A stretch of 64,000 nucleotides of DNA from Candidatus Methylomirabilota bacterium (GTDB lineage: Bacteria > Methylomirabilota > Methylomirabilia > Methylomirabilales > CSP1-5): NCBI GenBank assembly GCA_027293415.1, contig JAPUFX010000066.1, positions 9,779 to 73,778 on the forward strand, in the 5' to 3' direction. Within the stretch, counting starts at the first letter, position 1. The number at the start of each line of letters is the position of its first letter. The translations under genes were made by a program, and so were the position numbers. Below the pieces are notes generated by a model. It worked only from the letters and a program-made list of their open reading frames with translations, was not told the origin of the DNA and did no database searches. Below, piece by piece: positions 9,733-63,162 of this stretch.

Positions 9733-9801
9733 TCTGCAGCCAGTAGCCAGCTTGGGGATCCAAAAGCTGACTGCCGAAAGCTGATGGCGGACAGCTGCCA
9801 G
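9733..9801. repeat. Heptad inverted repeat, class B (GCTGAYR words)
   Basis: Left arm ctgcagccagtagccagctt, right arm aagctgactgccgaaagctgatggcggacagctgccag. The inner helix is CAGCTT/AAGCTG. Confidence 0.6.
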
Positions 9802-10207: not shown

Positions 10208-10212
10208 GATGA

Positions 10213-10290
10213 GTTCAGGGTTGAGAGTTCAGCGTTCAGAGCTTGGGAGCTTCGGTTCTGCTCTGAACCATGAACCGTGAACTGTGAACC
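10213..10290. repeat. Heptad inverted repeat, class A (GTTCAGR words)
   Basis: Left arm GTTCAGG GTTGAGA GTTCAGC GTTCAGA GC. Right arm GC TCTGAAC CATGAAC CGTGAAC TGTGAAC. The inner 9 bp pair perfectly. Confidence 0.8.
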
Positions 10291-10304
10291 CCGGAGGGAA
10301 GTCG

Positions 10305-11055: not shown

Positions 11056-11062
11056 AGAAAAG

Positions 11063-11138
11063 CAGTCAGCAATCAGCCGTCAGCGACCAGCAAGATCAAG
11101 AGGAAATTCAGTGCTGACAGCGGACTGCTGATGGCTGG
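11063..11138. repeat. Heptad inverted repeat, class B
   Basis: Left arm CAGTCAGCAATCAGCCGTCAGCGACCAGC. Right arm GTGCTGACAGCGGACTGCTGATGGCTGG. Confidence 0.75.
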
Positions 11139-22862: not shown

Positions 22863-24941
22863 GTGACGGTTAAGGTAGCCAAGGATCGCATTCGAAATAT
22901 CGGGATTATGGCCCACATCGATGCGGGGAAGACGACCACCACCGAACGCGTCCTTTACTATACCGGGAGGACGCACCGAATGGGCGAGGTGGATAGCGGA
23001 TCCGCAGAGATGGATTGGATGGAGCAGGAGAAAGAGCGAGGGATCACTATCACGTCCGCCTCCACCACCTGCTTCTGGCGCGATTATCAAATCAATATTA
23101 TCGATACCCCAGGGCACGTCGACTTCACTGTAGAGGTCGAGCGGTCGCTCCGGGTCCTGGACGGGGCTGTGATGATCTTCGATGCGGTTGCTGGGGTGGA
23201 ACCGCAGTCAGAGACGGTCTGGCGGCAGGCGGACAAGTATCACGTGCCTCGCGTCGCGTTCGTCAACAAAATGGACCGGGTTGGGGCTGACTTCTTCATG
23301 TCGGTGGGGTCCATCGCCGAGCGGCTCGGGGCGCATCCAGTGCCGATGCAGCTCCCACTAGGACAGGAGGCGAGCTATGCTGGCGTCATCGATTTGATCC
23401 GGATGCAAGCCATCGTCTGGGAGGAGGAGTCCTTAGGGGCCGAGTTTCAGATGAGAGAGATTCCTTCGGAGTGTACGGATCAGGCCCTGCAGTACCGCGA
23501 AAAGCTCCTGGAGGCGGTCGCGGAACAGGACGAGTCCTTGCTTCGCAAGTATGTCGAGGGGCGGGAGATCTCGGAACAGGAAATTCGGGCGGCGATCCGT
23601 AAGGCAACATTGGCCCTGAAAATCACACCGGTCATCTGTGGGGCCTCTTTCAGAAATAAGGGAGTTCAACCCTTGCTGGACGCGGTTGTGGATTATCTAC
23701 CCTCGCCCGTGGATCTCCCTCCGGTCACCGGGGTGAATCCCAAGACGGGTGAGGAAGAGAAACGATCGCCGGTCGATGAGGAACCACTGGCCGCTTTGGC
23801 CTTCAAGCTCGTGGCTGACCCCTACGTCGGTCAGCTCTGTTATTTTCGGGTGTATTCCGGAACCATGGAGTCCGGCACCTCCGTCTATAATCCCACCAGG
23901 CGGGTTCGAGAACGGATCGGCCGCCTCCTCCGAATGCACGCCAACAAGCGCGAAGAGGTGAAGAGCGTTCAGGCGGGGAACATCGCCGCTGCCGTCGGCC
24001 TGAAAAGTGCCAAGACGGGTGATACCCTGTGCAATGAAGGTCACCAGATCTTGCTTGAGGCCATTGAGTTTCCGACGCCGGTCCTTTCGGTGGCCATCGA
24101 GCCCAAGACCAAAGAGGGGGCCGAAAGACTTTCCCTCGCACTTCAGGCCTTGGCCAATGAGGATCCCACGTTCCAGACCCGGGGGGACGAGGAGACCGGC
24201 CAGACCATCATTTCTGGCATGGGAGAACTTCACCTCGAGATCATCGTGGATCGCCTCCTCCGGGAGTTCAAGGTGGAAGCCAACGTCGGGCGGCCTCAGG
24301 TGGCTTACCGCGAGACCATCACGCGTCCAGTCGAGGTGGAAAAGAAGTTCGTCCGGCAGACCGGAGGCCGGGGGCAGTACGCCCATGTCTACCTTCACGT
24401 GGAGCCCCAGCAGGCTGGGAGTGGCTTTCGGTTTGAGAAGAAGATTGTGGGAGGGGCGATCCCCCGGGAGTTCATCCCGGCAGTAGAGAAGGGGGTCCGG
24501 GAGGCAGCCGAGAGCGGGATGCTGGCCGGCTATCCGGTGGTCGACATCACGGTGACGCTGACCGACGGATCCTACCATGAGGTAGACTCCTCCGATCTGG
24601 CGTTCAAGATTGCCGGCTCCATGGCTTTCAAGGACGCGGTAAAGCAGGGCCACCCGATCCTCCTCGAGCCGGTGGTGCAGGTGGACGTTGTGGTGCCGGA
24701 GGAGTTTCTCGGCGAGGTGATCAGGGATTTGAACTCTCGGCGGGGTCGGGTTGTGGGGATCGAGACGCGGCCGGCGGCTCGGGTTGTGCGGGCGGAGGTT
24801 CCCCTGGCTACCATGTTTGGTTACGCAACCGATATGAGGTCGGCAACCCAGGGCCGGGCAACCTACACCATGCAGTTCGCTCGCTACGAGCCGCTCCCTG
24901 GAAGTCTTGCCGAGGAGATCATGGGGCGGGTGGCCAGTTGA
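22863..24941 (+). CDS. fusA: Elongation factor G
   Basis: 692 aa. [14 protein letters not shown] and NKMD motifs. Sits in the str-operon position. Confidence 0.97.
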
Positions 24942-24989
24942 ACGCCCCCTTTTTCTCAGATGGCGACCACAGTAATTTCCATTGCGATT

Positions 24990-25033
24990 TCAGCAGCCCA
25001 GCCCATGAAGTTGACTGCTTGTAGCTGACGGCG
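24990..25033. repeat. Degenerate class B-like word run in the fusA-rpsJ spacer
   Basis: tcagcagcccagc ... gactgcttgtagctgacggcg. Only weak arm complementarity. Confidence 0.3.
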
Positions 25034-25052
25034 GAGGACGGAGAGCCCAGGG

Positions 25053-25361
25053 ATGGAAGCGGAACGGATTCGGATACGGCTGAAGGCTTACGACCACCGG
25101 ATTTTGGATCAGTCCGCGAAGGAGATCGTAAGCACGGCCGAGCGAACAGGGGCAGGGGTTTCGGGACCTATTCCCCTTCCGACGAAGATCAGCCGGTACA
25201 CGGTCCTCCGCTCCCCGCACGTGGATAAGAAGTCGCGGGAACAGTTTGAGATCCGCATTCATGTCCGCCTTTTGGATATCCTGCGGCCCACGCCTCAGAC
25301 GGTGGATGCCCTCATGCGGTTGGACTTGCCGGCGGGGGTTGATGTTGAAATCAAACTCTAG
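25053..25361 (+). CDS. rpsJ: 30S ribosomal protein S10
   Basis: 102 aa. [14 protein letters not shown]. Confidence 0.97.
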
Positions 25362-25362
25362 T

Positions 25363-25452
25363 GTCCACAGTCCAAAGTCCAAGGTCGAAAAAGAGCAAAA
25401 CACCTGGTGACTTTGGACGTTGGACATTGGGCATCAGACAGACGTTGGACAT
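25363..25452. repeat. Heptad inverted repeat, class C (GTCCAAN words)
   Basis: Left arm GTCCACA GTCCAAA GTCCAAG GTC. Right arm GACTTTG GACGTTG GACATTG, plus an extra GACGTTGGACAT at 25441-25452. Confidence 0.8.
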
Positions 25453-25458
25453 TTCGTC

Positions 25459-26148
25459 ATGCAGATGGGTATTGGATTGCTCGGTAGGAAAGTAGGGATG
25501 ACCCAGATCTTTGATCAAGGGGGACGGGCCGTTCCCGTCACCGTGGTGGAGGCCGGCCCCTGTACCGTCGTCCAAAAGAAGGGTCTGGAAAAGGATGGCT
25601 ACGAGGCGGTCCAGCTCGGCTACCTTCCGGAAAAGCCAAAGCGCGTCCGCAAACCGATGAGCGGTCACTTCGGTAAAGGCAAGGTACCCCCCTTGCGGCA
25701 TCTTCAGGAGATGCGACTTCATTCGGCAGCCGAGTATCAGGTGGGCCAGACCCTGACGGTCGGCCTCTTTGCAGAAGGGGAAGAGGTCGTGGTGACCGGG
25801 ACGTCGAAGGGGCGGGGTTTCCAGGGCGGCGTGAAACGCTGGGGCTACCGGGGTGGCGCGAAGAGTCACGGATCCATGTTCCACAGGGCGGTGGGGTCGA
25901 TCGGTGCTTCTTCCTATCCCTCGCGAGTGTTTAAGGGCCACCATATGCCCGGGCGCATGGGGGGAGAGCGGGTGACGATCCGGGGACTCCATGTGGTCCG
26001 GCGGGATTCTGATCGAAACCTCCTGCTAATTCGTGGAGCGCTCCCCGGACCTCAGGGCGGTCTACTTACTGTTCGCAAGACGGGCAAGGCGGCCCTTGGC
26101 AGCGAACCGACGACGCCCCCGGAGAGAACTGCCGGGTCGAAAGCATAA
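25459..26148 (+). CDS. rplC: 50S ribosomal protein L3
   Basis: GLLGRKVGMTQIF N-terminus. Start is ATG 25459 or 25465. The track start 25420 lies in the repeat. C-terminal extension of about 20 aa. Confidence 0.93.
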   Translation: MQMGIGLLGRKVGMTQIFDQGGRAVPVTVVEAGPCTVVQKKGLEKDGYEAVQLGYLPEKPKRVRKPMSGHFGKGKVPPLRHLQEMRLHSAAEYQVGQTLTVGLFAEGEEVVVTGTSKGRGFQGGVKRWGYRGGAKSHGSMFHRAVGSIGASSYPSRVFKGHHMPGRMGGERVTIRGLHVVRRDSDRNLLLIRGALPGPQGGLLTVRKTGKAALGSEPTTPPERTAGSKA

Positions 26149-26188
26149 CCCGGCGGGACGTGGATGCCTCAGCGCTGAGAGAGTAACG

Positions 26189-26818
26189 ATGACTCGGGTT
26201 CTTGACGTGGTAAACCCACAAAACGAGAAGGTGGACGAGGTCGTCCTGTCTGAGGCCGTGTTTGGAGTTCCGGTCAAAGGGCACCTCCTTCACGAGGCCG
26301 TCCGGTGGCAGCGGGCAAGACAGCGGCGGGGAACTGCCTCGACGAAAGGGCGTTCCGAGGTCTCGGGAGGTGGGAGGAAGCCATGGCGTCAGAAGGGGAC
26401 CGGTCGAGCGCGAGCGGGGAGCAACCGTTCACCCCTGTGGCGACACGGGGGTATCAGCCATGGCCCGAAACCAAGGGATTGGAGTTTTCGCTTCCCGAAG
26501 GCACTCAGACGGGACGCCCTGCGCACCGCTCTCTCCACCAAGATCGCGGCGCGAGAGGTTCGGATCCTAGAAGACTTAACCATGGATCGGCCTAGTACGA
26601 AGACCTTCCAGAGTCTGCTAAAGGGTCTCGGCATTACCGGCAAGGTATTGGTGGTGACTTCTCAGAGGGAGGAGGCAGTGGAGAAGTCTGCCCGGAACCT
26701 CCCGCGGGTCAAGGTTCTCCTTGCCCAGGGAGTGAACGTCTCCGATGTGTTGAACGCTGACGCTATCCTGTTCACCCGCGAGGCGCTCGTCAAGGTCGAG
26801 GAGGCCCTGACTCCATGA
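26189..26818 (+). CDS. rplD: 50S ribosomal protein L4
   Basis: ATG 26189 gives a 209-aa L4 (MTRVLDVVNPQNEKV...). The track start 26033 overlaps rplC. Confidence 0.93.
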   Translation: MTRVLDVVNPQNEKVDEVVLSEAVFGVPVKGHLLHEAVRWQRARQRRGTASTKGRSEVSGGGRKPWRQKGTGRARAGSNRSPLWRHGGISHGPKPRDWSFRFPKALRRDALRTALSTKIAAREVRILEDLTMDRPSTKTFQSLLKGLGITGKVLVVTSQREEAVEKSARNLPRVKVLLAQGVNVSDVLNADAILFTREALVKVEEALTP

Positions 26819-27102
26819 GGGAGCCGCACCAGATCGTCCGTCGACCTGTTGTGACCGAGAAGGGGACGGCCCTGAAAGAGCATAACAAGTACCTCTTTGA
26901 GGTGGATCGGCGGGCCAACAAGGTCCAGATCAGACAGGCGGTGGAGGCCCTCTTTAACGTAAAGGTTGCCGCCGTCCATACCGTGGCCATGCGAGGGAGA
27001 GTGAAACGCCTCGGGCGATTTGTGGGACGCACCTCAGATTGGAAGAAAGCCATTGTAACCCTCAGCGAGGGGCACAGCATCGAGCTCTTTGAAGGCGTTT
27101 AG
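26815..27102 (+). CDS. rplW: 50S ribosomal protein L23
   Basis: 95 aa. ATGA overlap with the rplD stop. Confidence 0.95.
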   Translation: MREPHQIVRRPVVTEKGTALKEHNKYLFEVDRRANKVQIRQAVEALFNVKVAAVHTVAMRGRVKRLGRFVGRTSDWKKAIVTLSEGHSIELFEGV

Positions 27103-27186
27103 CAACTGGCAATCTGCTGTCTGCTATCTAGCTCTTCTCAAGGAAATGTTGACTGCTGATGGCTGACAGCTGGCAGCTGAAGAGCG
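27103..27186. repeat. Heptad inverted repeat, class B
   Basis: Left arm GCAACTG GCAATCT GCTGTCT GCTATCT AGC. Right arm GCTGATG GCTGACA GCTGGCA GCTGAAG AGC. Starts directly after the rplW stop. Confidence 0.75.
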
Positions 27187-27192
27187 GAAGAT

Positions 27193-28032
27193 ATGGGAAT
27201 TAAAAATTACAAGCCGACTTCATCCGGCCGTCGATTCCAGTCGGTGGCCACATTTGATGAGCTCACGAGGAAGCGGCCAGTCAAGGGTCTCGTGGCTTCC
27301 CTCCGCAGGAGGGGTGGGCGCAATGACCAGGGCCGGATGACGGTACGCCACCAGGGGGGAGGGCATAAGCGAAGGTACCGTCTTGTCGATTTCAGGCGAG
27401 ATAAGGTTGGTATTCCGGCGAAGGTCGCCAGCGTCGAGTACGACCCGAATCGCTCAGCGCGAATTGCTCTTTTGCATTACGCGGATGGTGAGAAGCGTTA
27501 CATCTTGGCTCCCGGTGGACTCGAGGTCGGCGCGCAGGTCATGTCCGGCCCCCAAGCTGAGATCAGCGTGGGGAATGCCCTGCCGCTCAGGGTCATTCCA
27601 CTCGGGTCGGTGGTTCACAATATCGAGCTTTCGCAGGGCAAAGGGGGACAACTCTGTCGGAGCGCGGGAGCCTCGGCGCAACTGATGGCGAGGGAGGAAA
27701 ATCGAGCCCTCCTCAAGCTCCCGTCGGGGGAGGTCCGGAAGGTTCACGTGGATTGCCTAGCCACCCTCGGCCAGGTGGGCAACATCGAGCACGAGAATGT
27801 CACCTTGGGTAAGGCGGGGCGCGCTCGTTGGCTCGGCATCCGGCCATCGGTGCGGGGGGTGGCGATGAACCCGCACGATCACCCGTTAGGAGGGGGTGAG
27901 GGCAAGAGTGCAGGGGGCCGACATCCATGCACCCCTTGGGGAAAGCCGACCAAGGGCTACAAAACACGCCAGAAGAGAAAATGGTCTGACCGCGAGATTG
28001 TCACTCGGCGTACTCGCCGTAAGCGGAAGTGA
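27193..28032 (+). CDS. rplB: 50S ribosomal protein L2
   Basis: 279 aa. [15 protein letters not shown] with a conserved C-terminal region. Confidence 0.98.
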
Positions 28033-28054
28033 TTCACCGCCGGAGGTAGTTTCG

Positions 28055-28339
28055 ATGGGGCGATCGTTAAAGAAGGGACCGTACATCGATCCCAAGCTGC
28101 TGAAAAAGATTGAAGACATGAATCGGACGCGGGACCACCGTGTCATCAAGACCTGGTCCCGCCGATCGACTATCACCCCGGAGTTCGTGGGCCATACGCT
28201 GGCGGTGCATAACGGGAAGAAGTTCATTCCAATCTATGTGACCGAGAACATGGTAGGCCACAAGCTGGGTGAGTTCTCCCCCACCCGGACCTTCCGAGCA
28301 CACAGCGGGCGCACGGCCAAGACGACCGCCTTAAAGTGA
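28055..28339 (+). CDS. rpsS: 30S ribosomal protein S19
   Basis: ATG 28055 after [24 protein letters not shown]. Confidence 0.96.
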
Positions 28340-28416
28340 GGAGGGAAGGCCTTCACCGGCGAGGCGAATATGGCTGAGATGTGTCGCGGGGTGGACAACG
28401 GACGGCGGGAGCGAGC

Positions 28417-28761
28417 ATGGAGACGCGGGCGGTCCTCAAATTTGTGAGAGTGCCACCCCGGAAGGCTCGACTGGTCGTCGATCTCATCCGGGGTCAGGAT
28501 GTGGGGCAGGCCCTGACCATTGTCCGCTATACCCCGAAGCGGGCGGCCCGAATCGTCGAGAAGCTGTTGAGGTCCGCCATGGCCAATGCGCAACATAACC
28601 ATGGCGTGCGGGATGTGGAGCGCCTGTTTGTAAAGGCCGCCACGGTTGACGAGGGCCCTCGGGGGAAGCGGTGGGTACCCAGGGCGATGGGAAGGGCAAC
28701 TCCGATACAAAAACGGACCAGTCATATTACCATTGTGCTAGAGGAACGTCCGGCTTCATAG
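28417..28761 (+). CDS. rplV: 50S ribosomal protein L22
   Basis: ATG 28417. [26 protein letters not shown]. Confidence 0.94.
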
Positions 28762-28775
28762 ATTGGGGGCGAGAC

Positions 28776-29489
28776 ATGGGACAAAAAGTCCATCCCGAGG
28801 GATTTCGATTGGGGTACATCAAGACCTGGAAATCGCGGTGGTTCGCGACCAGGGCGTATGCAGATCAGCTCCACGAAGACCTCAAGATCCGTCGGCACCT
28901 CAAGGAGAGACTGTACCACGCCGGCGTCTCCCGCATCGAGTTTGAGCGCAAAGCAAATCAGCTCCGCATCATCGTTCGAGCCGCGCGCCCCGGCATCATC
29001 ATCGGCAGAAAAGGTTCCGAGGTCGACAAGATTCGCCAAGAGCTTGCGGCCATGACCGATAAGGAGCTTCAACTCGACATCACCGAAGTCCGGAAGGCGG
29101 AGACCAACGCGCAGTTGGTAGCGGAGGCCACGGCGGCCCAGCTGGAGAGGCGGGTGGCCTTCCGTCGAGCCATGAAAAGGGCGGTCCAGTCCGCCATCCG
29201 GTTGGGGGCGCAGGGGGTGAAGATCATGGTCTCGGGGCGGCTGGGGGGGGCGGAGATTGCCCGGACCGAATGGTACCGGGAGGGGCGGGTTCCCCTCCAT
29301 ACCCTTCGGGCCGACATCGATTACGGCTTTGCCGAGGCGAGGACGAGCTATGGAAGGATTGGAGTCAAGACATGGATCTTTCACGGGGAGGTCATACCCG
29401 AGGCCGTGGCGGAAGGGGAAAGGCCCACGGTCCCAGACGTCCGTGAGGAGAGGCAGCGGCGCCGAAGAAAGGGTGTCGCTGAGAAGTAG
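28776..29489 (+). CDS. rpsC: 30S ribosomal protein S3
   Basis: ATG 28776. [24 protein letters not shown]. Arg-rich C-terminal tail. Confidence 0.96.
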
Positions 29490-29498
29490 GAGCCGTCG

Positions 29499-29924
29499 AT
29501 GTTGATGCCCAAGCGGACCAAGTATCGGAAACAGCAGCGAGGGCGGACAAAAGGGAAAGCGAAAGGGGGCACCGCGCTTGCCTTTGGTGAGTACGGCCTG
29601 AAGGCCCTGGAGCCAGCCTGGGTGACCAACCGCCAGATTGAGGCAGCCCGGCGGTCCATTACCAGGTATGTGAAAAGAGGCGGCAAGTTGTGGATTCGGA
29701 TCTTCCCAGACAAACCGCTCACGGCCAAGCCGGCGGAGACTCGGATGGGAAAGGGGAAGGGTGCAGTGGAGGGCTGGGTTGCGGTCGTGAAGCCAGGTCG
29801 GATTCTTTACGAGATGAAGGGGGTTAGTGAAGCCGAGGCTCGGGAGGCGCTGCGTCTGGCGGCTCACAAGTTACCTATTGCCACGAAGTTCGTCACGCGG
29901 TCCAAGGGGACACTGGGCGAATGA
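29499..29924 (+). CDS. rplP: 50S ribosomal protein L16
   Basis: 141 aa. [16 protein letters not shown]. Confidence 0.97.
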
Positions 29925-30139
29925 AAGTCAGGGATCTCCGGGAGATGACCACTGAGGAACTCCACCAAAAGCGGGGTGATGTCAGAGAGGATCTCTTCCG
30001 TCTGAGGATGCGGAAGGCCGTGGCGCAGTTGGAGAATCCCATACGCCTTCGCCAGCTCCGACGAGATGTTGCTCGGATCGAGACCCTCCTGCGAGAGCGG
30101 GAACGGGGCCAGGACCGGGGTCCCGAGGAGTCGGGGTAG
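29921..30139 (+). CDS. rpmC: 50S ribosomal protein L29
   Basis: 72 aa. ATGA overlap with rpl[13 protein letters not shown]. Confidence 0.93.
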
Positions 30140-30140
30140 A

Positions 30141-30401
30141 ATGATGCAGCAGCGCAGCCGGCGGAAGGTGTTCACGGGGACCGTGGTCAGCGACCGGATG
30201 CAGAAAACGGTGGTGGTGTCTGTTGAGCGGTCTTTCCGGCACCCCAAGTATAACAAGCTGTTGCGCCGTCGGACCAAGCTGAAGGCCCACGACGAAGAGC
30301 AGAAATGCCGGGTTGGGGACAAGGTCAGGATCATGGAGACCCGTCCCCTGAGCCGAGACAAACGATGGCGTATCATCGAGGTCGTCCAAAAGGCCGTATG
30401 A
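30141..30401 (+). CDS. rpsQ: 30S ribosomal protein S17
   Basis: ATG 30141 comes 1 nt after the rpmC stop. [22 protein letters not shown]. Confidence 0.94.
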
Positions 30402-30453
30402 GATATGTGTGGTGCGCATCGCGCACTGAGAGGCGCGACGGCAGGAATCGATC

Positions 30454-30822
30454 ATGGTTGGGCTCAGGACAATTCTGGATGTGGCAGACAACTCGGGGGC
30501 CAAGCGGATCTCCGTCATCAAGGTCCTCGGAGGTTCCGCGAAACGGTATGGGCGAATCGGGGATGTCATCGTGGCGAACGTCAAGGAGGCCCTCCCTGAG
30601 GGATCGGTGAAGAAGGGAGATGTGGTCCGGGCGGTGGTGGTCCGGACGGCGAAGGAAGTCAGGCGTACCGACGGGTCTCACATTAAGTTCGACCGGAATG
30701 CGGCGGTCCTGATCAACGAGCAAAACAATCCCCTTGGGACCCGGATCTTCGGCCCCGTCGCTCGCGAGCTTCGAGAGAAGCAGTTTATGAAAATCATCTC
30801 GTTGGCCCCAGAGGTGGTCTGA
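30454..30822 (+). CDS. rplN: 50S ribosomal protein L14
   Basis: 122 aa. [19 protein letters not shown]. Confidence 0.97.
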
Positions 30823-30870
30823 GGGGGCTCAGATTTAACGGCTGGGAACAGGAAAAGGTCAGGGGACAAC

Positions 30871-31200
30871 ATGGCGGTGCGGACGGTGCTTCCGATTCGG
30901 AAGAATGATCTGATCATGGTCATGGCTGGAAAGGATAGGGGGAAGAGGGGGAAAGTTTTGAGAGTCAATCCGAAAGCTGGAACGGTGGTGGTCGAACGGA
31001 TCAATGTCGTGAAGCGACACACCCGTCCCGGAGGGGTGAGCCAGCAGGGAGGGATTATCGAGAAGGAGTCTCCCCTTCACGTCTCCAACGTCATGGTCAT
31101 CTGTTCCCATTGTGACCGACCAGTTCGAACCGGGCACAGCTTCCTCGCCGATGGGAAAAAGGTTCGGGTCTGTAAACAGTGTGGCGAGGCCGTGGATTAG
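30871..31200 (+). CDS. rplX: 50S ribosomal protein L24
   Basis: 109 aa with a KOW motif ([16 protein letters not shown]). Confidence 0.94.
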
Positions 31201-31210
31201 GGAGAAGGCG

Positions 31211-31825
31211 ATGGCGGAAACGGCGAAAAAGAAGGGCGAAAAGGCGCCGAAACCTGAGGCAAAGTCTCCGGCTGCCCCCAAGTCTCCGTCCCGGCTTCGA
31301 GAGCGGTATCATCGAGAGATGGTTCCCGCCCTCATGAAGCGGTTCGGATTCAAGAACCTCTTTCAAGTTCCCCGCCCTGTGAAGGTGATCATCAACATGG
31401 GGCTGGGCGAAGCGGTGGGGAATATCAAGGTCATTGATAGTGCCGTCGGGGAGCTGGCGACCATCACCGGGCAGCGGCCCGTGGTGACCCGGGCCAAGAA
31501 ATCAGAGGCGGGCTTCAAGCTCCGAACCGGGATGCCCATCGGCTGTAAGGTGACTCTCCGGGGGGATCGGATGTACGAGTTCTTGGACCGGTTTCTGAAT
31601 ATTGCTCTGCCGAGGATCCGGGACTTTCGGGGCGTCTCCCCTCATTCATTTGACGGACGCGGCAATTATGCGTTGGGAGTCAAAGAGCAGGTCATCTTCC
31701 CCGAGATTAAGTACGACAAGGTCGATATGGTCCGGGGGATGGATGTCTGCATCCACACCACTGCCCAAAACGATGAGGAGGCCCGCGCCCTGCTGGAGCA
31801 ACTTGGATTTCCTTTTCGGTCCTGA
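31211..31825 (+). CDS. rplE: 50S ribosomal protein L5 with a Lys/Pro/Ala-rich N-terminal extension
   Basis: ATG 31211 after GGAGAAGG. An extension of about 25 aa ([25 protein letters not shown]) precedes the conserved [19 protein letters not shown] core. No later in-frame start precedes the conserved region. Confidence 0.92.
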
Positions 31826-31837
31826 GGGAGGGGGAGT

Positions 31838-32023
31838 GTGGCAAAAAAAGCCCTCGTGGTGAAGGCGCAGCGGGCGCCAAAGTTTCGGGTGCGGCAGTAT
31901 CACCGGTGTCGGATCTGTGGCCGCCCCCGGGGCTATCTCAGACGGTTCGCCATGTGCCGGGTCTGCTTCCGGCACTTGGCCCTCCGGGGAGAGGTTCCCG
32001 GTGTTGTCAAGGCCAGTTGGTAA
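31838..32023 (+). CDS. rpsZ: 30S ribosomal protein S14, type Z (zinc-binding)
   Basis: 61 aa. [20 protein letters not shown]. Confidence 0.95.
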
Positions 32024-32030
32024 CTTGCCA

Positions 32031-32117
32031 GTTCAGAGTTCATGGTTCACAGTTCAGGGTCGGGTGAGCACGATGACCTTGTACAAGTCCCTGAATCATG
32101 CACCGTAAACCCTGAAC
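32031..32117. repeat. Heptad inverted repeat, class A
   Basis: Left arm GTTCAGA GTTCATG GTTCACA GTTCAGG GTC. Right arm CCTGAAT CATGCAC CGTAAAC CCTGAAC. Confidence 0.8.
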
Positions 32118-32128
32118 GGAGTAGCTCA

Positions 32129-32524
32129 ATGTTGACCGATCCGATTGCCGATATGCTTACTCGCCTGCGGAACGCAAACGCGGCAGGGCACGAGAAAGTG
32201 GATATCCCGTTGTCGCGGCTCAAGGTGGAGATTGCGCGGATCCTGAAGAAAGAGGGTTTCGTCAAAGGCTATAAGGTCATCGATCAAGACATACAAGATA
32301 TTCTTCGGGTCTATCTGAAGTACGGTTCCGGCAACGAGCGGGTCCTCCGCGGGATTACCCGGACCAGTAAGCCGGGGCTCCGGGTCTACGCCCGGTCCCG
32401 CAAGATTCCCCGAGTCCTGAGCGGCATGGGGATTGCGATCATCTCTACCTCCAAGGGGATCATGACCGATCGGGAGGCGCGGAACCAAGGAGTAGGAGGC
32501 GAGGTTCTCTGCCACGTCTGGTAA
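32129..32524 (+). CDS. rpsH: 30S ribosomal protein S8
   Basis: ATG 32129. [16 protein letters not shown]. The track start 32042 lies within the repeat. Confidence 0.96.
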
Positions 32525-32528
32525 CGAC

Positions 32529-32597
32529 AGTCCGACGTCCACAGTCCAAGGTCCAACGTCGGTAATGGGAAAGGTCCTGTGACTTTGGACTTCGGAC
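32529..32597. repeat. Heptad inverted repeat, class C
   Basis: Left arm AGTCCGAC GTCCACA GTCCAAG GTCCAAC GTC. Right arm GGTCCTGT GACTTTG GACTTCG GAC. Confidence 0.8.
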
Positions 32598-32614
32598 CCT
32601 TTAGGGTGATTACG

Positions 32615-33154
32615 ATGTCGCGGGTTGGCCGGCTGCCCATTTCCATCCCGAGTGATGTTCAGGTCTCCGTGCTCAACGGTTCCGTTGAAGTGCAGGGGCC
32701 AAATGGGCAGCTCGTGCTAGATGTGCACCCGGTCATCCGTGTCCGTGTAGAAGATGGAAAAGTTCTCTGCGACCGTTCGACTGATCAAAAACCCCACCGG
32801 GCCCTCCACGGGCTTACGCGGGCGCTGATCGCGAATATGATCCGAGGGGTGACCCAAGGATTTGAGAAGAAGCTGGAGCTGGCCGGCGTCGGTTATCGCG
32901 CTCAGGTCCAGGGTCAGACGCTTACGTTGAGCCTCGGGTATACGAACCCCGTGGTATACATGGTGCCTCCCGATATCAAGGCAACCGTGGAGGGCACGAC
33001 GCTGATCACGGTCTCCGGGATTGACAAGCAACGTGTGGGGGAAGTCGCCGCCAAGATCCGGGGCTTGCGGCCCCCGGAACCGTATAAGGGGAAGGGGGTC
33101 AAGTATGTGGGTGAGCGGATCCGTCGCAAAGCCGGAAAGGCCGGGGCGAAGTAG
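32615..33154 (+). CDS. rplF: 50S ribosomal protein L6
   Basis: ATG 32615. MSRVGRLPISIPSDVQV. Confidence 0.95.
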   Translation: MSRVGRLPISIPSDVQVSVLNGSVEVQGPNGQLVLDVHPVIRVRVEDGKVLCDRSTDQKPHRALHGLTRALIANMIRGVTQGFEKKLELAGVGYRAQVQGQTLTLSLGYTNPVVYMVPPDIKATVEGTTLITVSGIDKQRVGEVAAKIRGLRPPEPYKGKGVKYVGERIRRKAGKAGAK

Positions 33155-33162
33155 AGGGAGTT

Positions 33163-33537
33163 GTGAGCACGATTGATTGGACGAAGAAGCGGCTTGCCCG
33201 GCGGAGACGGCATCGGCGAGTGCGGAAAAGGGTCGTTGGCGTGCCTGATCAGCCTCGCCTGTCGATTTTCAAGTCTCGCCGCCATATCTACGCACAGATC
33301 ATCAACGATTTGGAGGGGCGGACGCTAGCGGCCGCTTCCACCGTCTCACCGGAATTCAAGGGCAAGGGGGGAAATCGGACAAAGGCCGATGCCGCCAAGG
33401 TCGTAGGGGAGATCCTGGCGGACAAGGCCCTCAAGCACGAGATCCGGCGAGTGGTCTTCGACCGGGGCGGGTACAAATTCCATGGACGGGTCAAGGCCTT
33501 GGCGACCGGGGCCCGGGAAAAGGGATTGACCTTCTGA
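33163..33537 (+). CDS. rplR: 50S ribosomal protein L18
   Basis: 124 aa. GTG start after GAGGGAG. C-terminus YKFHGRVKALATGAREKGLTF. Confidence 0.95.
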   Translation: MSTIDWTKKRLARRRRHRRVRKRVVGVPDQPRLSIFKSRRHIYAQIINDLEGRTLAAASTVSPEFKGKGGNRTKADAAKVVGEILADKALKHEIRRVVFDRGGYKFHGRVKALATGAREKGLTF

Positions 33538-33549
33538 TGGAGGAGGTTT

Positions 33550-34089
33550 GTGGCGACCGAACAAATCAATAGCCAAGCCTTGAACCTGGTCGAACGCGTC
33601 ATCCACATTAACCGCGTGGGAAAGGTGGTCAAGGGTGGCCGCCGCTTCAGCTTCAGCGCCTTGGTCACGGTAGGGGACCAGGCGGGGCACGTAGGGCTCG
33701 GACTGGGAAAGGCCCACGAAGTTCCGGAAGCGATTCGGAAGGGGATCGAGGCAGCCAAGAAACGCCTGATCAAGGTTCGACTCAAGGGGCGGACAATTCC
33801 TCACAGGATCCTCGGGAAGTACGGGGCAGGGCTCGTCCTGATGAAGCCGGCCTCGGAGGGGACCGGGATTGTGGCGGGTGGTGCCGCGCGAGCGGTCTTC
33901 GAGGCGGCTGGTGTTCAGAACATTCGGGCGAAGTCTTTAGGCAGCGCCAATCCCCACAATGTGGCCAAGGCGACCATGGCCGGTCTCCAGGCTCTTCGTT
34001 CTCCCGATGAGATCGGCTTGCTCCGGGGAAAGAAAGGGGAAGAGGCTGAGGAGGGACTGGGAGTGTCCGATGAGACTTCACGAGCTTAG
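33550..34089 (+). CDS. rpsE: 30S ribosomal protein S5
   Basis: 179 aa. GTG start after [28 protein letters not shown]. Short acidic C-terminal extension. Confidence 0.96.
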
Positions 34090-34519
34090 CCCGGCTCCTG
34101 GCTCGCGAAAGAAGCGAAAGCGGGTGGGGCGGGGCCCGGGATCAGGACACGGGCAGACTTCGGGCCGGGGGGACAAGGGGCAGAAGGCCCGGTCGGGGGT
34201 GAGTATCCCACCCTGGTTTGAAGGAGGCCAGATGCCGCTCACCCGGCGCCTTCCAAAGCGGGGCTTTCGGAATCGCTTTCGAAAGGAGTTTGCCATCGTC
34301 AATCTCCGGGATCTGGATCGGATCGAAGCCGGGACGACGGTCACTCCTCTTCTCCTCCTGGAACGAGGTCTCATCAAGGGGGTAAAGGACGGGGTCAAGG
34401 TTCTGGGAGATGGAAATCTTTCGCATCCCGTCACGGTGGAGGCGCACCGCTTTTCTGAGGCTGCCCTCCGTAAGATCGACGCCGCAGGAGGGGCGGTCAA
34501 GGTAATCGAGGAGCCATGA
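34070..34519 (+). CDS. rplO: 50S ribosomal protein L15
   Basis: ATG 34070. [28 protein letters not shown]. Overlaps the rpsE end by 20 nt, leaving no room for rpmD. Confidence 0.94.
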
Positions 34520-35823
34520 GCGACTTCGCCAATATCTTCAAAGTCCCCGAACTCAGGAAGCGCCTCCTCTTCACCGGCCTGATCCTTATCGTCTACCGCA
34601 TCGGGGCGCACATCCCTACCCCTGGTATCGATGCGGCGGCATTGGGTGATATCTTCGCCAGGGCTGGCGGCACGCTCTTTGGCTTCTTCGATCTCTTCTC
34701 CGGTGGGGCATTACGGCGCGCCAGTATCTTCGCCCTCGGGATCATGCCCTATATCGATGCCTCGATCATTCTTCAGCTCTTGGCGGTGGTCGTTCCGTAT
34801 ATCGAGCGGCTCCAAAAAGAGGGGGCCGAGGGGCGGAAAAAGATTACCATGTATACCCGGTACGGGACGGTCCTCATCGCCGTGATCCAGGGGATGGGCA
34901 TTGCCATCGGGCTGGAGGGGATCACCGCGGAATCGGGGGCGCTGGTCGTGCCCAATCCCGGCTGGGGCTTTCGCATCATGACCACCCTGACCCTGACCGC
35001 CGGCAGCATCCTTCTGATGTGGTTGGGAGAGCAGATTTCAGAGCGGGGGATCGGCAATGGGATCTCACTTCTCATCTTTGCCGGAATCATCGTGAACCTT
35101 CCCTCGGCAATTTACCTTTCCTTCCAACTCATCCGGACCGGTGAGATGAAGGCCTACGTTTTCCTCTTTATCATAGTCGTTATGGTCGTAGTGGTGGCCG
35201 GGGTGGTCATTATGACGTTAGGCCAGCGGCCTATTCCAGTCCAGTATGCCAAACGGGTCGTTGGCAGGAGGGTATACGGAGGACAGGCAACACATATCCC
35301 CTTACGGGTGAACACGGCCGGCGTGATCCCTGTCATTTTCGCCGCTTCAATCATCGTGTTGCCGGCGACGGTGGCCCAGTTTATCGCGCATCCCTGGATG
35401 CAGTCGGTGGCGCAGGTACTCTCGCCGGGGTCGATCAGTTACTTTGCGCTCTACGGCGGGAGTATCATTTTCTTCACCTACTTCTATACCGCTATCATCT
35501 TTAACCCCGCCGATGTCGCGGAAAACTTGAAAAAATACGGGGGCTTCGTCCCAGGTATCCGCCCGGGCGCGAGGACGGCGGAGTATGTTGAAAAGGTGCT
35601 CGACCGGGTCACCTTCGTCGGGGCCATCTACCTGGCGCTGATCTCCATTTTTCCGGAAGTCCTGATCATGTGGGCGAATGTCCCCTTCTTCTTCGGCGGG
35701 ACCTCCCTGCTCATCGTGGTCGGCGTCGCTTTGGATACCGCGCAGCAGATCGAGGCCCATCTCGTGATGCGCCACTATGAAGGGTTCCTCAAGAAGGGAA
35801 AGATGAAGGGGCGAACCTTCTGA
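34516..35823 (+). CDS. secY: Preprotein translocase subunit SecY
   Basis: 435 aa polytopic membrane protein. ATGA overlap with rplO. Confidence 0.97.
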
Positions 35824-35866
35824 AACTTGAAGGCGGTGGTTTTTTCGATATGCTAAGAGTTTAGGC

Positions 35867-36511
35867 ATGCAAGTCATCCTCCTCGGCCCTCCCGGGGCGG
35901 GCAAGGGGACCCAAGCCAAGATGCTGACCGAGCAATATGGGGTTCCCCAGATCTCCACCGGGGATATCCTGCGGGCCGCTGTGACTGCGGGGACTCCTCT
36001 CGGGAAAGAGGCCAAGACGTACATGGACCGGGGGGCGTTGGTCCCGGACGAGGTCGTGATCGGTATCGTCCGCGACCGCCTGACCGAGTCTGACTGTCAG
36101 GCAGGGTATCTTCTCGACGGTTTTCCCCGGACCGTGGCGCAAGCGGAGGCGCTGACGCGCATGCTGAAAGAGTTGGGGACGTCACTCCCCACCGTAGTGA
36201 GCCTCGACGTAACAGAAGAGGAATTGATCCGCCGCCTCGCCGGACGGCGAACGTGCCAGGCCTGTGGAGAACCCTTTCATGTGGAATTTCATCCTCCTCG
36301 GGTTGGCGGCATTTGTGACAAGTGCAGCGGGAATCTCATCCAACGGGACGATGATCAGGAAGAGACGGTCCGTCGGCGCCTCCAGGTCTATCGCGAGCAG
36401 ACCGAGCCGCTGATCGGGTATTATCAGAGGCAGGGACGGTTGAAGACGGTCAAGGGGCTGGGAGACACGGGAGACATCTTTGCACGGATATCGAGGGTCC
36501 TTGAAGGGTGA
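35867..36511 (+). CDS. adk: Adenylate kinase (zinc-lid type)
   Basis: [11 protein letters not shown]-loop. Lid sequence CQACGEPFH...CDKCSG. Confidence 0.96.
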
Positions 36512-37301
36512 GACGGTCAAACTGCCGCTCCGCAGTCCCATAGAGTACAAAGCACTGTGGGAGGTGGATCGTATAGGTCAGGCCAGCCGGCTCGTTGCCG
36601 AGGCGTTGTTGGCCCTCCGGGAGGAGAGCCAACCCGGGGTGAAGACGGCAGAACTCGATCGTTTTGCCGAGGCCTTTCTCCTCGAACGGGGAGCGCAAGC
36701 TGCCTTCAAGGGATACCGGGGTTATCCGTGTACCGTGTGCACCTCGGTAAACGAAGAGGTAGTGCACGGTCTTCCCTCCGAGCGCAGGCTTCAGGAAGGA
36801 GAGATCGTGAGTTTAGACCTTGGGGCGATTGTGGAAGGGTATTATGGAGATGCGGCGCTGACCGTTCCTGTCGGGGAAATTTCTCCAGAAGCGAGGCGAC
36901 TCCTCGAGGTCACCCGCGAGGCACTGCACCGCGGGATCGCGGCAGCGGTGTCTGGTCAGCACCTGACAGATATCTCCCATGCGATTCAGACTCACGTGGA
37001 GGCTGATGGCTTCTCGGTGGTTCGGATCTTCGTTGGGCATGGAATTGGGCGGGCCCTACACGAAGAGCCTCAAATCCCCAACTTTGGCCCCCCGGGTCGT
37101 GGGCCACTCCTGAAGCCTGGAATGGTTCTGGCCATTGAACCCATGGTGAATGCCGGGACCCACGAGGTGACCATCCTCGAGGATCGATGGACCGCGGTGA
37201 CCCAGGATGGTTCGCTGTCTGCCCACTTTGAGCACACGATTGTCATCACCGAAAAGGGCCCCGAAATTCTCACCCGTTCCGAAACGGGAGAAACTTGGTA
37301 G
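36480..37301 (+). CDS. map: Type I methionine aminopeptidase
   Basis: Conserved metal ligands ([24 protein letters not shown]). The start is uncertain: TTG 36480 or TTG 36501, both overlapping the adk end. Confidence 0.9.
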
Positions 37302-37308
37302 GAGGTCG

Positions 37309-37602
37309 ATGCGCAAGAGGTCCGCTGGACAGCGCAGAAAGAGGTCCGCTGGACAGCGCAAAAAGAAGTCCGCTGGACAAACCCAAAAGAAGGAAGAGGC
37401 GATCGAGGTCGAAGGGACCGTGGTCGAGCCCTTGCCGAACGCCATGTTTCGGGTGGAGTTCGAGACGGGCCACAAAGTGCTGGCCCACATATCGGGGAAG
37501 ATGCGGATGCATTTTATCCGGATCCTCCCGGGGGATAAAGTTATTGTGGAGCTCAGTCCCTACGATCTGAGCCGAGGTCGCATCATTTATCGCCATAAGT
37601 AG
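37309..37602 (+). CDS. infA: Translation initiation factor IF-1 with a repeat-encoded basic N-terminal extension
   Basis: ATG 37309 after AGGAGGT. The conserved core is [68 protein letters not shown]. It is preceded by [28 protein letters not shown]. No in-frame start lies closer to the core. Confidence 0.9.
37315..37386 (+). repeat. 24-bp tandem repeat x3 inside the infA 5' coding region
   Basis: Copy 1: aagaggtccgctggacagcgcaga. Copy 2: aagaggtccgctggacagcgcaaa. Copy 3: aagaagtccgctggacaaacccaa. Confidence 0.9.
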
Positions 37603-37604
37603 TT

Positions 37605-37677
37605 GTCGGCTGTCAGCAGTCCGCAGTCAGCTTTGACCCGCGATAGTAATTGCTGACAGCTGATGGTTGACAGCAGG
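37605..37677. repeat. Heptad inverted repeat, class B
   Basis: Left arm GTCGGCT GTCAGCA GTCCGCA GTCAGCT. Right arm GCTGACA GCTGATG GTTGACA GCAGG, running into the rpmJ SD AGGAGG. Confidence 0.8.
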
Positions 37678-37685
37678 AGGCTGAA

Positions 37686-37799
37686 GTGAAGGTGCGGGCG
37701 TCGGTAAAACGAATCTGTGAGAAGTGCAAGGTAATCAAGCGGAAAGGGGTTGTCCGGATCGTCTGCGAAAACCCTCGACACAAACAGCGACAGGGCTAG
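37686..37799 (+). CDS. rpmJ: 50S ribosomal protein L36 (zinc form)
   Basis: Hand-translated 37 aa: [40 protein letters not shown] start after AGGAGG. Below the ORF-track cutoff. Confidence 0.92.
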
Positions 37800-37863
37800 C
37801 GCAGACAGAAGACCGATGACCGTCGTAACCGGGTCGTCGATCAACGGATGACGAGGAGGACAA

Positions 37864-38235
37864 ATGGCGCGAATCGCAGGCGTGGATCTTCCGCGCGAGA
37901 AACGGCTGGAGGTGGCTCTCACTTACATCTTTGGGATCGGTCGCTCGTCTTCTCGCAGGATCCTGAGTGAGGCCAATGTCAGCACTGATGTGCGCGTGAA
38001 GAACTTGACCGAAGATGAGGTGAATCGCATTCGGCGGGTGATCGAGGAACAGTTTAAGGTCGAGGGAGACCTCCGTCGAGATGTGGGCATGAACATCAAG
38101 CGACTTATGGACATCGGCAGCTACCGGGGTCTCAGACATCGACGGGGGCTTCCGGTCCGGGGCCAGCGGACTCATACGAATGCCCGGACCCGGAAAGGCC
38201 CTCGCCGCACGGTAGGTGCCCGGCGGAAGAGGTAG
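37864..38235 (+). CDS. rpsM: 30S ribosomal protein S13
   Basis: 123 aa. [14 protein letters not shown]. Confidence 0.97.
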
Positions 38236-38245
38236 GAGGGAAACC

Positions 38246-38650
38246 ATGGCGGCAACGCGACGACGGGGAGGGGCCCGGGCCGTTCCCAAGAGGGAGGCCA
38301 AGAACATCACACAAGGAGTCGCCCATGTCCAGGCCACCTTCAATAATACCATCGTGACCATTACCGACCCGCAGGGGAATGTGGTGACCTGGGCCAGTGC
38401 CGGCAGTGTGGGCTTCAAGGGGTCACGAAAGAGTACTCCTTTTGCTGCTCAGACTGCCGCGGAGAATGCGGCTCAGAAAGCCATGTCGCATGGGATGAGA
38501 GAGGTGAGGGTCTATGTGAAGGGCCCGGGGGCTGGTCGGGAGGCGGCGATCCGAGCACTGCAGGCAGCGGGACTCGAGATTACGACGATCAAAGATGCGA
38601 CGCCCGTTCCGCACAATGGCTGCCGCCCGCCGAAGCGTCGGAGGGTATGA
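38246..38650 (+). CDS. rpsK: 30S ribosomal protein S11
   Basis: ATG 38246 after [24 protein letters not shown]. Confidence 0.96.
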
Positions 38651-43744: not shown

Positions 43745-44212
43745 ATGTCTACGGTCGATCTGGTTGTAGAGCGAGTCCGAACCGTTGCCCTTCCCCTGAT
43801 AGAAAGCCAGGGGATGACGCTGGTGGACGTGGAATTTCGTCGGGAAGCACGGGGTTGGGTGCTTCGACTGTACCTGGACCGGCCGGAGGGGGTCACACTG
43901 GAGAACTGCAGCGAGGTCAGTGCGCAGCTCTCTGACCTCTTGGACGTGGAAGGGCTCATCGAGCATCCTTATAGCTTGGAAGTTTCCTCAGCCGGATTGA
44001 ACCGCGTTCTCAAGACGCCGCAGGATTTCATGCGATTTGCTGGCCGGTTGGCCCGGCTCGAGACCGCGGCTCCTATCGGCGGGCAGCGACGGTTCCGTGG
44101 CCGATTAGAGGGATACCGGGAGGGCATGGTGATCTTGCGACAGGCCGAGGGACCGACGCTTCTTCTACCCTTAGAGGCGATTGTGAAGGCCCGGCTTGAG
44201 GTCGAACTATAG
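43745..44212 (+). CDS. rimP: Ribosome maturation factor RimP
   Basis: ATG 43745. 155 aa. Position upstream of nusA. LVDVEFRREARGWVLRLYLD. Confidence 0.88.
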   Translation: MSTVDLVVERVRTVALPLIESQGMTLVDVEFRREARGWVLRLYLDRPEGVTLENCSEVSAQLSDLLDVEGLIEHPYSLEVSSAGLNRVLKTPQDFMRFAGRLARLETAAPIGGQRRFRGRLEGYREGMVILRQAEGPTLLLPLEAIVKARLEVEL

Positions 44213-44217
44213 TGTCA

Positions 44218-44280
44218 GTCTAAGGTCCAACGTCCAAGGTCCAACGGTACGGCACCATGTAACATAGACGTTGGACCTTT
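44218..44280. repeat. Heptad inverted repeat, class C
   Basis: Left arm GTCTAAG GTCCAAC GTCCAAG GTCCAAC GGT. Right arm GACGTTGGACCTTT. Confidence 0.78.
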
Positions 44281-63044: not shown

Positions 63045-63047
63045 TAA

Positions 63048-63158
63048 GTTCACGGTTCAGAGTTCAGAGTTGAGAGTGCAGAGTGCAGAGTTCAGGGAAA
63101 GGATAACACCTTTTTTTTGCTGTTTCAGCGCTGAACCCTGAACCATGAACCCTGAACG
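63048..63158. repeat. Heptad inverted repeat, class A (largest copy)
   Basis: Left arm GTTCACG GTTCAGA GTTCAGA GTTGAGA GTGCAGA GTGCAGA GTTCAGG. The centre contains a T8 run. Right arm GCTGAAC CCTGAAC CATGAAC CCTGAAC. Confidence 0.85.
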
Positions 63159-63162
63159 AAGT

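Follow-up and report, generated by a model that had tools for sequence, protein, structure and literature searches.

The gene rpsH, which encodes ribosomal protein S8, is bracketed on a 64,000-nucleotide (nt) stretch of DNA (contig JAPUFX010000066.1 of assembly GCA_027293415.1, forward-strand positions 9,779 to 73,778; hereafter the window) by two hairpins built from tandem 7-nt words, one in the rpsZ-rpsH spacer and one in the rpsH-rplF spacer. These elements probably represent a slippage-prone family of heptad hairpins, resembling the short tandemly repeated repetitive (STRR) sequences of cyanobacteria, which runs through the NC10 bacteria and is not specific to rpsH. Across nine NC10 lineages, in which the identity of S8 to that of the window ranges from 100% to 74%, the upstream spacer measures 68-133 nt and carries GTTCA heptads in all nine, and the downstream spacer measures 80-104 nt and carries heptads in eight of the nine, the ninth (L010) having a spacer of 30 nt. 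The window holds nine heptad hairpins, the rpsH-flanking pair included, and all of them lie between genes of the same strand. The material compared consists of the 64 kb of the window genome and of 12-kb pieces of its relatives. The S8 protein of the window is identical or nearly so to proteins named NC10 or Methylomirabilis, its best named relatives, which identifies the host, by sequence, as Candidatus Methylomirabilis (NC10).

The heptad hairpins of the window

The genes rpsZ, rpsH and rplF belong to the spc section of a cluster of ribosomal-protein genes on the + strand, and identical genes in other assemblies are annotated with the Pfam families for S14, S8 and L6. The features of the locus, with open reading frame (ORF) calls and the periods reported by Tandem Repeats Finder (TRF), are as follows:

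31838..32023, + strand: rpsZ (zinc-type S14, 61 aa); ORF call, PF00253 on the orthologous gene of other assemblies
32024..32128, + strand: rpsZ-rpsH spacer, 105 nt, class A heptad hairpin; RNA fold -35.7 kcal/mol, z -2.44
32030..32060, + strand: class A 5' arm, CAGTTCA GAGTTCA TGGTTCA CAGTTCA then GGG (four heptads); TRF period 7, inverted repeat
32089..32117, + strand: class A 3' arm, CCCTGAA TCATGCA CCGTAAA CCCTGAAC (degenerate complement heptads); inverted repeat
32118..32121, + strand: GGAG, probable rpsH ribosome-binding site; read from sequence
32129..32524, + strand: rpsH (S8, 131 aa); ORF call, PF00410
32525..32614, + strand: rpsH-rplF spacer, 90 nt, class C heptad hairpin; RNA fold -32.1 kcal/mol, z -1.56
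32527..32560, + strand: class C 5' arm, ACAGTCC GACGTCC ACAGTCC AAGGTCC AACGTC; TRF periods 7 and 14, inverted repeats
32573..32597, + strand: class C 3' arm, GGTCCTG TGACTTT GGACTTC GGAC, site of a ±7-nt copy-number polymorphism; inverted repeat, strain alleles
32603..32609, + strand: AGGGTGA, probable rplF ribosome-binding site; read from sequence
32615..33154, + strand: rplF (L6, 179 aa); ORF call, Pfam L6 on the identical gene of other assemblies

Upstream of rpsH, where the word takes the form nnGTTCA, TRF reports period 7 at 32030-32057, and the inverted-repeat arms (32031-32059 and 32089-32117) are 29 nt each and 76% complementary, with a 28-nt loop between them. Downstream, where the word takes the form nnGTCCA, period 7 is reported at 32530-32560, and the arms (32530-32554 and 32573-32597) are 25 nt each and 80% complementary, again with a loop between them. 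The first-pass annotation of this DNA had placed a class A element at 32031-32117 and a class C element at 32529-32597, and the former coincides exactly with the inverted-repeat arms found here, while the coordinates of the latter match both the TRF period and the arms. GGAG lies directly 3' of the class A hairpin, 7 nt before the rpsH ATG, and weak outer pairs of the minimum-energy fold extend into it; AGGGTGA lies partly within a 4-bp mini-hairpin of the minimum-energy fold of the rpsH-rplF spacer. The stems of both folds consist of 4-6-bp blocks between regular mismatches.

Both elements also contain in-frame start codons. In the reading frame of rpsH, the class A element is free of stop codons from an ATG at 32042 onward, which gives a 160-aa ORF (29 additional codons, 32042-32128), and a GTG at 32579 extends rplF by 12 codons (32579-32614). 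The homologues of the rpsH and rplF products begin at MLTDPIAD and MSRVGR, respectively. Gene callers could thus over-extend rpsH and rplF by way of these starts, a point of consequence for annotation.

The same architecture, in which one 7-nt word is repeated in a short tandem array and followed by a loop and the complementary array (with 4-5 heptads in the elements beside rpsH), recurs at seven further junctions of the window, in three classes defined by the words GTTCAnn (A), GTCAGCn (B) and GTCCAnn (C):

10211..10293, + strand: class A, between a tRNA gene and secE; fold -41.5 kcal/mol, z -3.46
11061..11125, + strand: class B (GTCAGC-type heptads), between nusG and rplK; fold -31.4 kcal/mol, z -1.85
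25357..25440, + strand: class C, between rpsJ and rplC; fold -35.7 kcal/mol, z -4.25
27103..27180, + strand: class B, between rplW and rplB; fold -28.6 kcal/mol, z -1.28
37603..37665, + strand: class B, after infA (infA-rpmJ); fold -35.3 kcal/mol, z -1.21
44216..44275, + strand: class C, after an ORF ending at 44212 (probably rimP, named from gene order only) and before a gene that is probably nusA; fold -29.4 kcal/mol, z -3.10
63046..63161, + strand: class A, the largest, with seven heptads in the 5' arm, after an ORF ending at 63044 (probably hom); fold -44.9 kcal/mol, z -4.52

The heptad period stands out from the background of the window. Autocorrelation finds 11 segments of period 7, compared with 0-2 for periods 5, 6 and 8-11 and with a mean of 0.06 period-7 segments in mononucleotide shuffles, and among all 5-mers, GTCCA, GTTCA and TGAAC lead in recurrence exactly 7 nt apart, each with six cases where about 0.05 would be expected from their abundance. 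The stems span 25-35 bp. The elements match one another over their heptad arrays only, their loops and flanks being different, and a master copy or a common loop was sought among them and none was found. When the whole window was compared with Rfam 15, whose families cover leaders of ribosomal-protein genes among others, tRNAs alone matched at the gathering score, and between 31000 and 33500 nothing matched at E <= 10. Intrinsic terminators were considered and rejected, as the 13 terminator-like sites in 24500-38500 all lie outside the elements, 13 is also the count in shuffled sequence, and a ribosome-binding site rather than a T run lies 3' of the hairpins; a promoter scan of the same interval placed no site on any element.

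Two further features were seen in the same cluster. The secY-adk spacer (35824-35866; 43-44 nt, of the same length in all NC10 lineages) has a short stem followed by a T run, GGCGGTGGTTTTTT, which may be an internal attenuator or terminator. The 5' end of infA contains, inside the reading frame, a 24-nt tandem repeat (37315-37392; about 3.2 copies of the unit AAGAGGTCCGCTGGACAGCGCAAA) which codes for three successive copies of a basic unit of 8 residues (KRSAGQRR-like) at the N-terminus of IF1; it is present in three copies in the window, L089 and L092, in two in L098 and in one in the more distant NC10 lineages, and each unit holds a small GTCC..GGAC palindrome.

Occupancy and turnover of the spacers

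The same rpsH-flanking spacers are present in eight independent assemblies that encode an identical S8 protein, which excludes an assembly error. The first-pass annotation had stated that spc junctions are normally short, and this agrees with the medians of 20 nt for the S14-S8 spacer and 15 nt for the S8-L6 spacer in 78 loci from outside NC10, as against 105 and 90 nt here. It had also reckoned with relatives whose spacers lack heptads and with an assembly artefact; relatives were found to carry heptads, and independent assemblies to agree. Downstream of rpsH the class is patchily distributed, GTCCA being the word of the window, L092, L098 and L104 and GTTCA that of L089, L100, L101 and L105. 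The class B hairpin at rplW-rplB in the window has a counterpart of the same class at that junction in L089, L092, L098 and L101, and some other junctions of the cluster hold elements in part of the NC10 lineages only. A further set of junctions is always tight in NC10, namely rplD-rplW (-4), rplP-rpmC (-4 to -1), rpmC-rpsQ (about 1) and rplO-secY (-4). Overall, the NC10 loci contain 39 period-7 segments in 117 kb and the loci of other phyla 16 in 605 kb. Among the matches listed in a metagenome scan with the S8 protein, there was one NC10 locus, a duplicate of L090. At the rpsE-rplO junction, the two genes overlap by 20 nt in the window (33550-34519), with no rpmD (L30) gene between them either there or in the closest relatives, and L104 and L105 have a gap of 316-406 nt.

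Heptad arrays, several of them with inverted partners, were also seen between ribosomal-protein genes in a few assemblies of Thermodesulfovibrionales, Nitrospiraceae and Peptococcaceae (L053:128-230 and 2846-2920; L065:2190-2880 and 3448-3545; L060:5361-5410; L072; L088), where the words are lineage-specific, for example GGCTCAT/GGCTGAT or GAGTGMT. Such arrays thus extend beyond NC10. For Methylomirabilis, literature searches turned up no description of heptamer or hairpin repeats.

Occupancy of the junctions is accompanied by rapid change of the sequence within them, and the smallest change is a single heptad. Among eight strains at least 99.5% identical to the window, the only insertions or deletions in about 6 kb are the gain (GGACATT) or the loss (GGACTTC) of 7 nt, both located in the 3' arm of the downstream element, which gives rise to spacers of 83 nt (L006), 90 nt (the window and L002) and 97 nt (L001 and others) with predicted folds of -22.5, -32.1 and -36.7 kcal/mol, respectively. 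The upstream spacers of L104 and L105 are one GGTTCAT unit apart.

The larger change is the exchange of a whole spacer, which is seen in two pairs of close relatives, L089/L092 (98.4% identical over 12.4 kb) and L104/L105 (97.8%). In both pairs, the genes beside the spacers have 0-2 mismatches per 100 nt and the spacers 35-51 mismatches plus gaps; L089 and L092 differ in both rpsH-flanking spacers, L104 and L105 in the downstream one only, save for the one upstream heptad. The borders of the exchanged stretch are the stop codon and the start codon, so that the non-repeat tail and the ribosome-binding site are included, and no duplications were seen at the borders of the rpsH-flanking spacers. 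In a four-way comparison, the sites that conflict with the strain tree (41 and 46) are confined to the two spacers, with 0 in the neighboring 400-nt bins. Combinations of spacers recur in several independent assemblies each and hence are real haplotypes. The heptad-free rpsQ-rplN (52 nt) and secY-adk (43-44 nt) spacers of the same operon diverge at no higher rate than the genes. A stepwise conversion of class A to class C in place, by T-to-C changes, was ruled out for L104/L105, because their heptad registers do not coincide and their tails are different, too. No donor-type sites are seen in the flanks, which constrains ordinary homologous recombination with a divergent donor to tracts of less than about 220 nt upstream and 290 nt downstream. 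The replacement may have come about by very short tracts of recombination, by an exchange between alleles that coexist or by mobility.

At rplW-rplB, an element can be compared with an empty site. L104 has an overlapping TAATG at this junction and L105 an 83-nt spacer with weak GGTGT-type periodicity (L104:1020-1110 versus L105:930-1110), and short ATGGG-like repeats lie at the borders of this filled/empty pair, which fits a deletion between microhomologies equally well. Together with the 30-nt spacer of L010 downstream of rpsH, the overlap in L104 means that the elements are dispensable.

The first-pass annotation had taken the two word classes on either side of one short gene as a sign of independent insertion or expansion events. 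Independence stands, given that the upstream element is always of the GTTCA class, that the downstream class is patchy and that one spacer can be exchanged without the other, as between L104 and L105. The insertions are not private to this genome or to rpsH, as the elements occur throughout NC10 down to an S8 identity of 74% and at seven unrelated junctions; they are old occupants of the rpsH junctions with a fast turnover. Two heptad-free spacers within the cluster behave differently, namely rpsQ-rplN (30402-30453; 52 nt, with the GC-rich palindrome GCGCATCGCGC) and rpsS-rplV (28340-28416; 77 nt), which are conserved within the genus Methylomirabilis about as well as coding sequence and may hold structured elements of another kind.

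Polarity, possible function and alternative explanations

In the NC10 data, the array of GT-words always forms the 5' arm and its complement the 3' arm (15:0). This polarity reads alike on both strands and is thus uninformative on the direction of transcription, for which reason an orientation of the word relative to transcription was rejected as an explanation; nevertheless, the fixed polarity is a real restriction on the architecture. The same restriction is met on viral contigs, in which arrays of at least four units comprise more than 120 GTTCA stretches and 104 GTCCA stretches, compared with 59 for the control word GCTTAnn x4. A complementary array lies downstream of 42 of 161 GTTCA arrays and upstream of 1, downstream of 12 of 118 GTCCA arrays and upstream of 2, and downstream of 1 of 62 control-word arrays and upstream of 2, so that the polarity for GTTCA and GTCCA together is 54:3. 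CCTGAnn x4, also tried as a control for the viral contigs, was invalid because it equals the class A complement in another register. The phage contigs with GTTCA-heptad hairpins of the same polarity range in G+C from 24% to 67%, some carry 3-6 copies, and several of the hairpins stand directly before a ribosome-binding site and ATG; examples are found at L127:1983-2080, 4267-4350 and 5519-5600 (minus strand) and on L124, L112 and L118.

If the elements are slippage-prone repeats, their arrays would grow and shrink through slipped-strand mispairing, and they would accumulate at operon junctions in which stop and start codons do not overlap. Such elements would be transcribed within the spc-operon mRNA, and the predicted stem would start a few nt past the upstream stop codon and end at or just before the downstream ribosome-binding site; in the minimum-energy folds, it begins at a median of 2 nt after the stop and ends at a median of 11 nt before the start, with the ribosome-binding site included in several cases. 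A hairpin in this position could loop out the extra 70-100 nt and keep the stop codon and the next start site close together, and a ribosome terminating on the upstream gene would open the base of the stem, so that coupling would be kept and the insertion tolerated. This geometry would explain why inserts are tolerated exactly at junctions without stop/start overlap and would agree with the part in transcript stability or translational coupling that has been suggested for cyanobacterial STRR hairpins (PMC2670836), and the length of the stem, changing in 7-nt steps, could tune expression or mRNA stability. Such a function in coupling and looping-out, which comes from modeled folds, is put forward tentatively and is itself open to considerable doubt.

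Several observations weigh against slippage-prone, merely tolerated repeats as the full account. Slippage alone leaves unexplained the inverted pairing of the arrays, the constant position of the word in the 5' arm in NC10 and viral contigs alike, and the exchange of whole spacers without marks in the flanks, and the occupancy of both junctions across a deep clade could reflect selection for a function. In 28 non-independent spacers, the fold of the sense strand is slightly more stable than that of the antisense strand (-33.1 versus -31.1 kcal/mol, p ~0.03) and contains more G-U pairs (88/847 versus 59/799), an excess that hints at a constraint at the RNA level but is not decisive. The z-scores of the nine single folds are modest (-1.2 to -4.5), and the case for the elements hence rests on periodicity, inverted architecture and recurrence. 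In an RNAalifold analysis of nine orthologous upstream spacers, the alignment of the 5' arm breaks down and four trivial pairs are all that is recovered, because the heptad register slips and positional homology is lost.

Some of these points would be accommodated if the hairpins were selected RNA elements of the operon, acting as stability barriers or as RNase III or RNase E processing sites that set the ratios of the ribosomal proteins, with the heptads as raw material only. The retention of rpsZ-rpsH elements in 9/9 and rpsH-rplF elements in 8/9 NC10 lineages despite the turnover of their sequence speaks for such a role, as do the upstream 3' arm and ribosome-binding site, which align across the NC10 lineages, and the greater stability and G-U content of the sense strand. 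Double-strand-specific RNases need stems of sufficient length, and those of 25-35 bp would be enough. Nonetheless, elements are lost outright in close relatives without visible compensation (L104 at rplW-rplB, L010 at rpsH-rplF); class, length and stability vary among near-identical strains, which is unlike a tuned processing site; the strand asymmetry is statistically weak and its samples are non-independent; and no compensatory changes are demonstrable in the alignment of the upstream spacer, which makes a selected element of this type rather unlikely. The more specific idea that the hairpins are S8 translational operators bracketing rpsH, at which the first-pass annotation had hinted, draws on their position and on the fact that S8 is a translational regulator of the spc operon in Escherichia coli, and on nothing else. 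The E. coli operator is located at the start of rplE, not beside rpsH, and mimics helix 21 of 16S rRNA; the rplX-rplE spacer here measures 10 nt, and a 16S rRNA gene is absent from the window. Hairpins of the same classes occupy seven junctions unrelated to S8, L104 and L105 carry a GTCCA and a GTTCA element, respectively, downstream of genes for an identical S8 protein, and no Rfam family matches even at E <= 10, so that the hint at autoregulation was not borne out; operators of this kind are extremely improbable and an S8-specific role in general is very unlikely.

The sharply bounded exchange of spacers between assemblies that are about 98% identical could also be the work of mobility, with the hairpins as non-autonomous DNA, either miniature inverted-repeat transposable elements (MITEs) or elements like the repetitive extragenic palindromic sequences (REPs) and their hairpin-forming doublets (REPINs), moved in trans by a transposase that recognizes the heptad hairpin, preferentially into the site between a stop codon and the next ribosome-binding site. 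The filled and empty sites at rplW-rplB with their ATGGG-like border repeats, the occurrence of the same words, hairpin form and polarity on many viral contigs (42/161 downstream and 1 upstream for GTTCA) and the fixed polarity itself, as a structure-specific enzyme would impose it, are consistent with this. However, the copies have the heptad words alone in common and no master copy, neither terminal inverted repeats distinct from the arrays nor consistent target-site duplications were seen, the exchanged stretch extends over the non-repeat tail and the ribosome-binding site to the start codon, and the borders at rplW-rplB are explained as well by deletion between microhomologies; mobility of this kind is accordingly improbable. 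A comparably small chance is given to a broader conjecture, according to which the GTNCA heptad hairpins of fixed polarity in NC10 and on many phage contigs would form one cross-phylum class, made or recognized by a conserved factor, and in NC10 would couple neighboring cistrons as exchangeable units, by whose adjustment in 7-nt steps the translation or stability of essential operons is tuned, with divergent spacer alleles being kept or exchanged within a species. An action at the level of DNA, through periodic protein-binding sites or cruciforms that affect replication or chromosome structure, would fit an architecture and polarity that are alike on both strands and the similar folding energies of the two strands. 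It is scarcely credible given that the elements occur only in spacers between the cistrons of co-directional operons whose expression is probably high, that a period of 7 nt differs from the helical repeat of DNA, that the region has no promoter-like sites and that no candidate protein was identified.

Ribosomal-protein operons rank with the most compact and conserved of all gene arrays. With the elements viewed as a slippage-prone heptad family, two junctions of these operons would have been filled for a long time, across a whole clade of nitrite-dependent methane oxidizers, by 80-130 nt of an unstable repeat hairpin, so that large structured inserts are tolerated at the junctions of rpsH and may even be put to use. 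With their 7-nt alleles and with spacers replaced at about 98% identity, the strains provide a natural series for asking whether heptamer repeats of the STRR type act on coupling, on mRNA stability or on neither, and the spacers are sensitive strain markers for Methylomirabilis populations.

Comparison with known heptamer and hairpin repeats

The closest known kind of element is the cyanobacterial STRR heptamer hairpin, including its hupS-hupL form. The classical STRR words are CCCCAAT, TTGGTCA and CAACAGT, none of which occurs in tandem in the window. STRR and NC10 elements have in common the 7-nt unit, the short tandem arrays and the dispersed intergenic copies (nine loci in 64 kb here). Between hupS and hupL of Nostoc, Anabaena and Lyngbya, 7-bp STRR repeats form hairpins for which a role in transcript stability or translational coupling has been suggested (PMC2670836), and these resemble the NC10 elements in that heptamer arrays within an operon spacer are able to pair. 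Another cyanobacterial repeat, ttgtcag, is close to the GTCAGC-type word of class B (PMC2408588). On the other hand, the STRR hosts are filamentous cyanobacteria and the NC10 elements belong to a different phylum; the inverted-pair hairpin of fixed polarity is the rule in NC10 and an occasional arrangement among STRR sequences; and the NC10 elements recur over a deep clade at junctions, orthologous to one another, of essential ribosomal-protein operons, a pattern of which no report was found for STRR sequences.

A second heptamer, TAACTGA, is known as a direct repeat from marine Beggiatoaceae, some cyanobacteria and Bacteroidetes (MacGregor, 2015; PMC4679880). Like the NC10 arrays, it forms intergenic arrays of variable copy number, often just upstream of start codons, and is found inside ribosomal-protein operons, for example upstream of L3, S4 and fusA; a post-transcriptional role has been proposed for it, with single-stranded binding proteins as partners (PMC4679880). 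Unlike the NC10 elements, the TAACTGA repeats are based on one word only and are almost all direct, with one indirect repeat among 170 sets (PMC4679880). TAACTGA occurs once in the window and its complement twice, never in tandem.

The REPs, bacterial interspersed mosaic elements (BIMEs) and REPINs of proteobacteria (PMC3333891; PMC3116915) share with the NC10 hairpins that they are abundant short imperfect palindromes in intergenic spacers, often within operons, and that they evolve as a family within genomes; REPs are known to stabilize upstream mRNA. They differ in having no internal 7-nt periodicity, a conserved family sequence with a GTAG-type foot and a link to REP-associated tyrosine transposases (RAYTs). 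A consensus of the REP type that extends beyond a short word was not found among the NC10 copies, which match in their heptad arrays only. Finally, the long simple repeats of prokaryotes, with units of 5-11 nt, are most commonly heptanucleotides and have been attributed to polymerase slippage (summarized in PMC4679880). In the form summarized there, they agree with the NC10 arrays in the 7-nt unit, the non-coding location and a copy number that varies as slippage predicts, yet they are direct tandem arrays, to which the NC10 elements add paired inverted arrays, fixed polarity and whole-spacer replacement. What is new here, compared with all of these systems, is the presence of heptamer-array hairpins in a new phylum, with three related words, a fixed polarity and the exchange of whole spacers.

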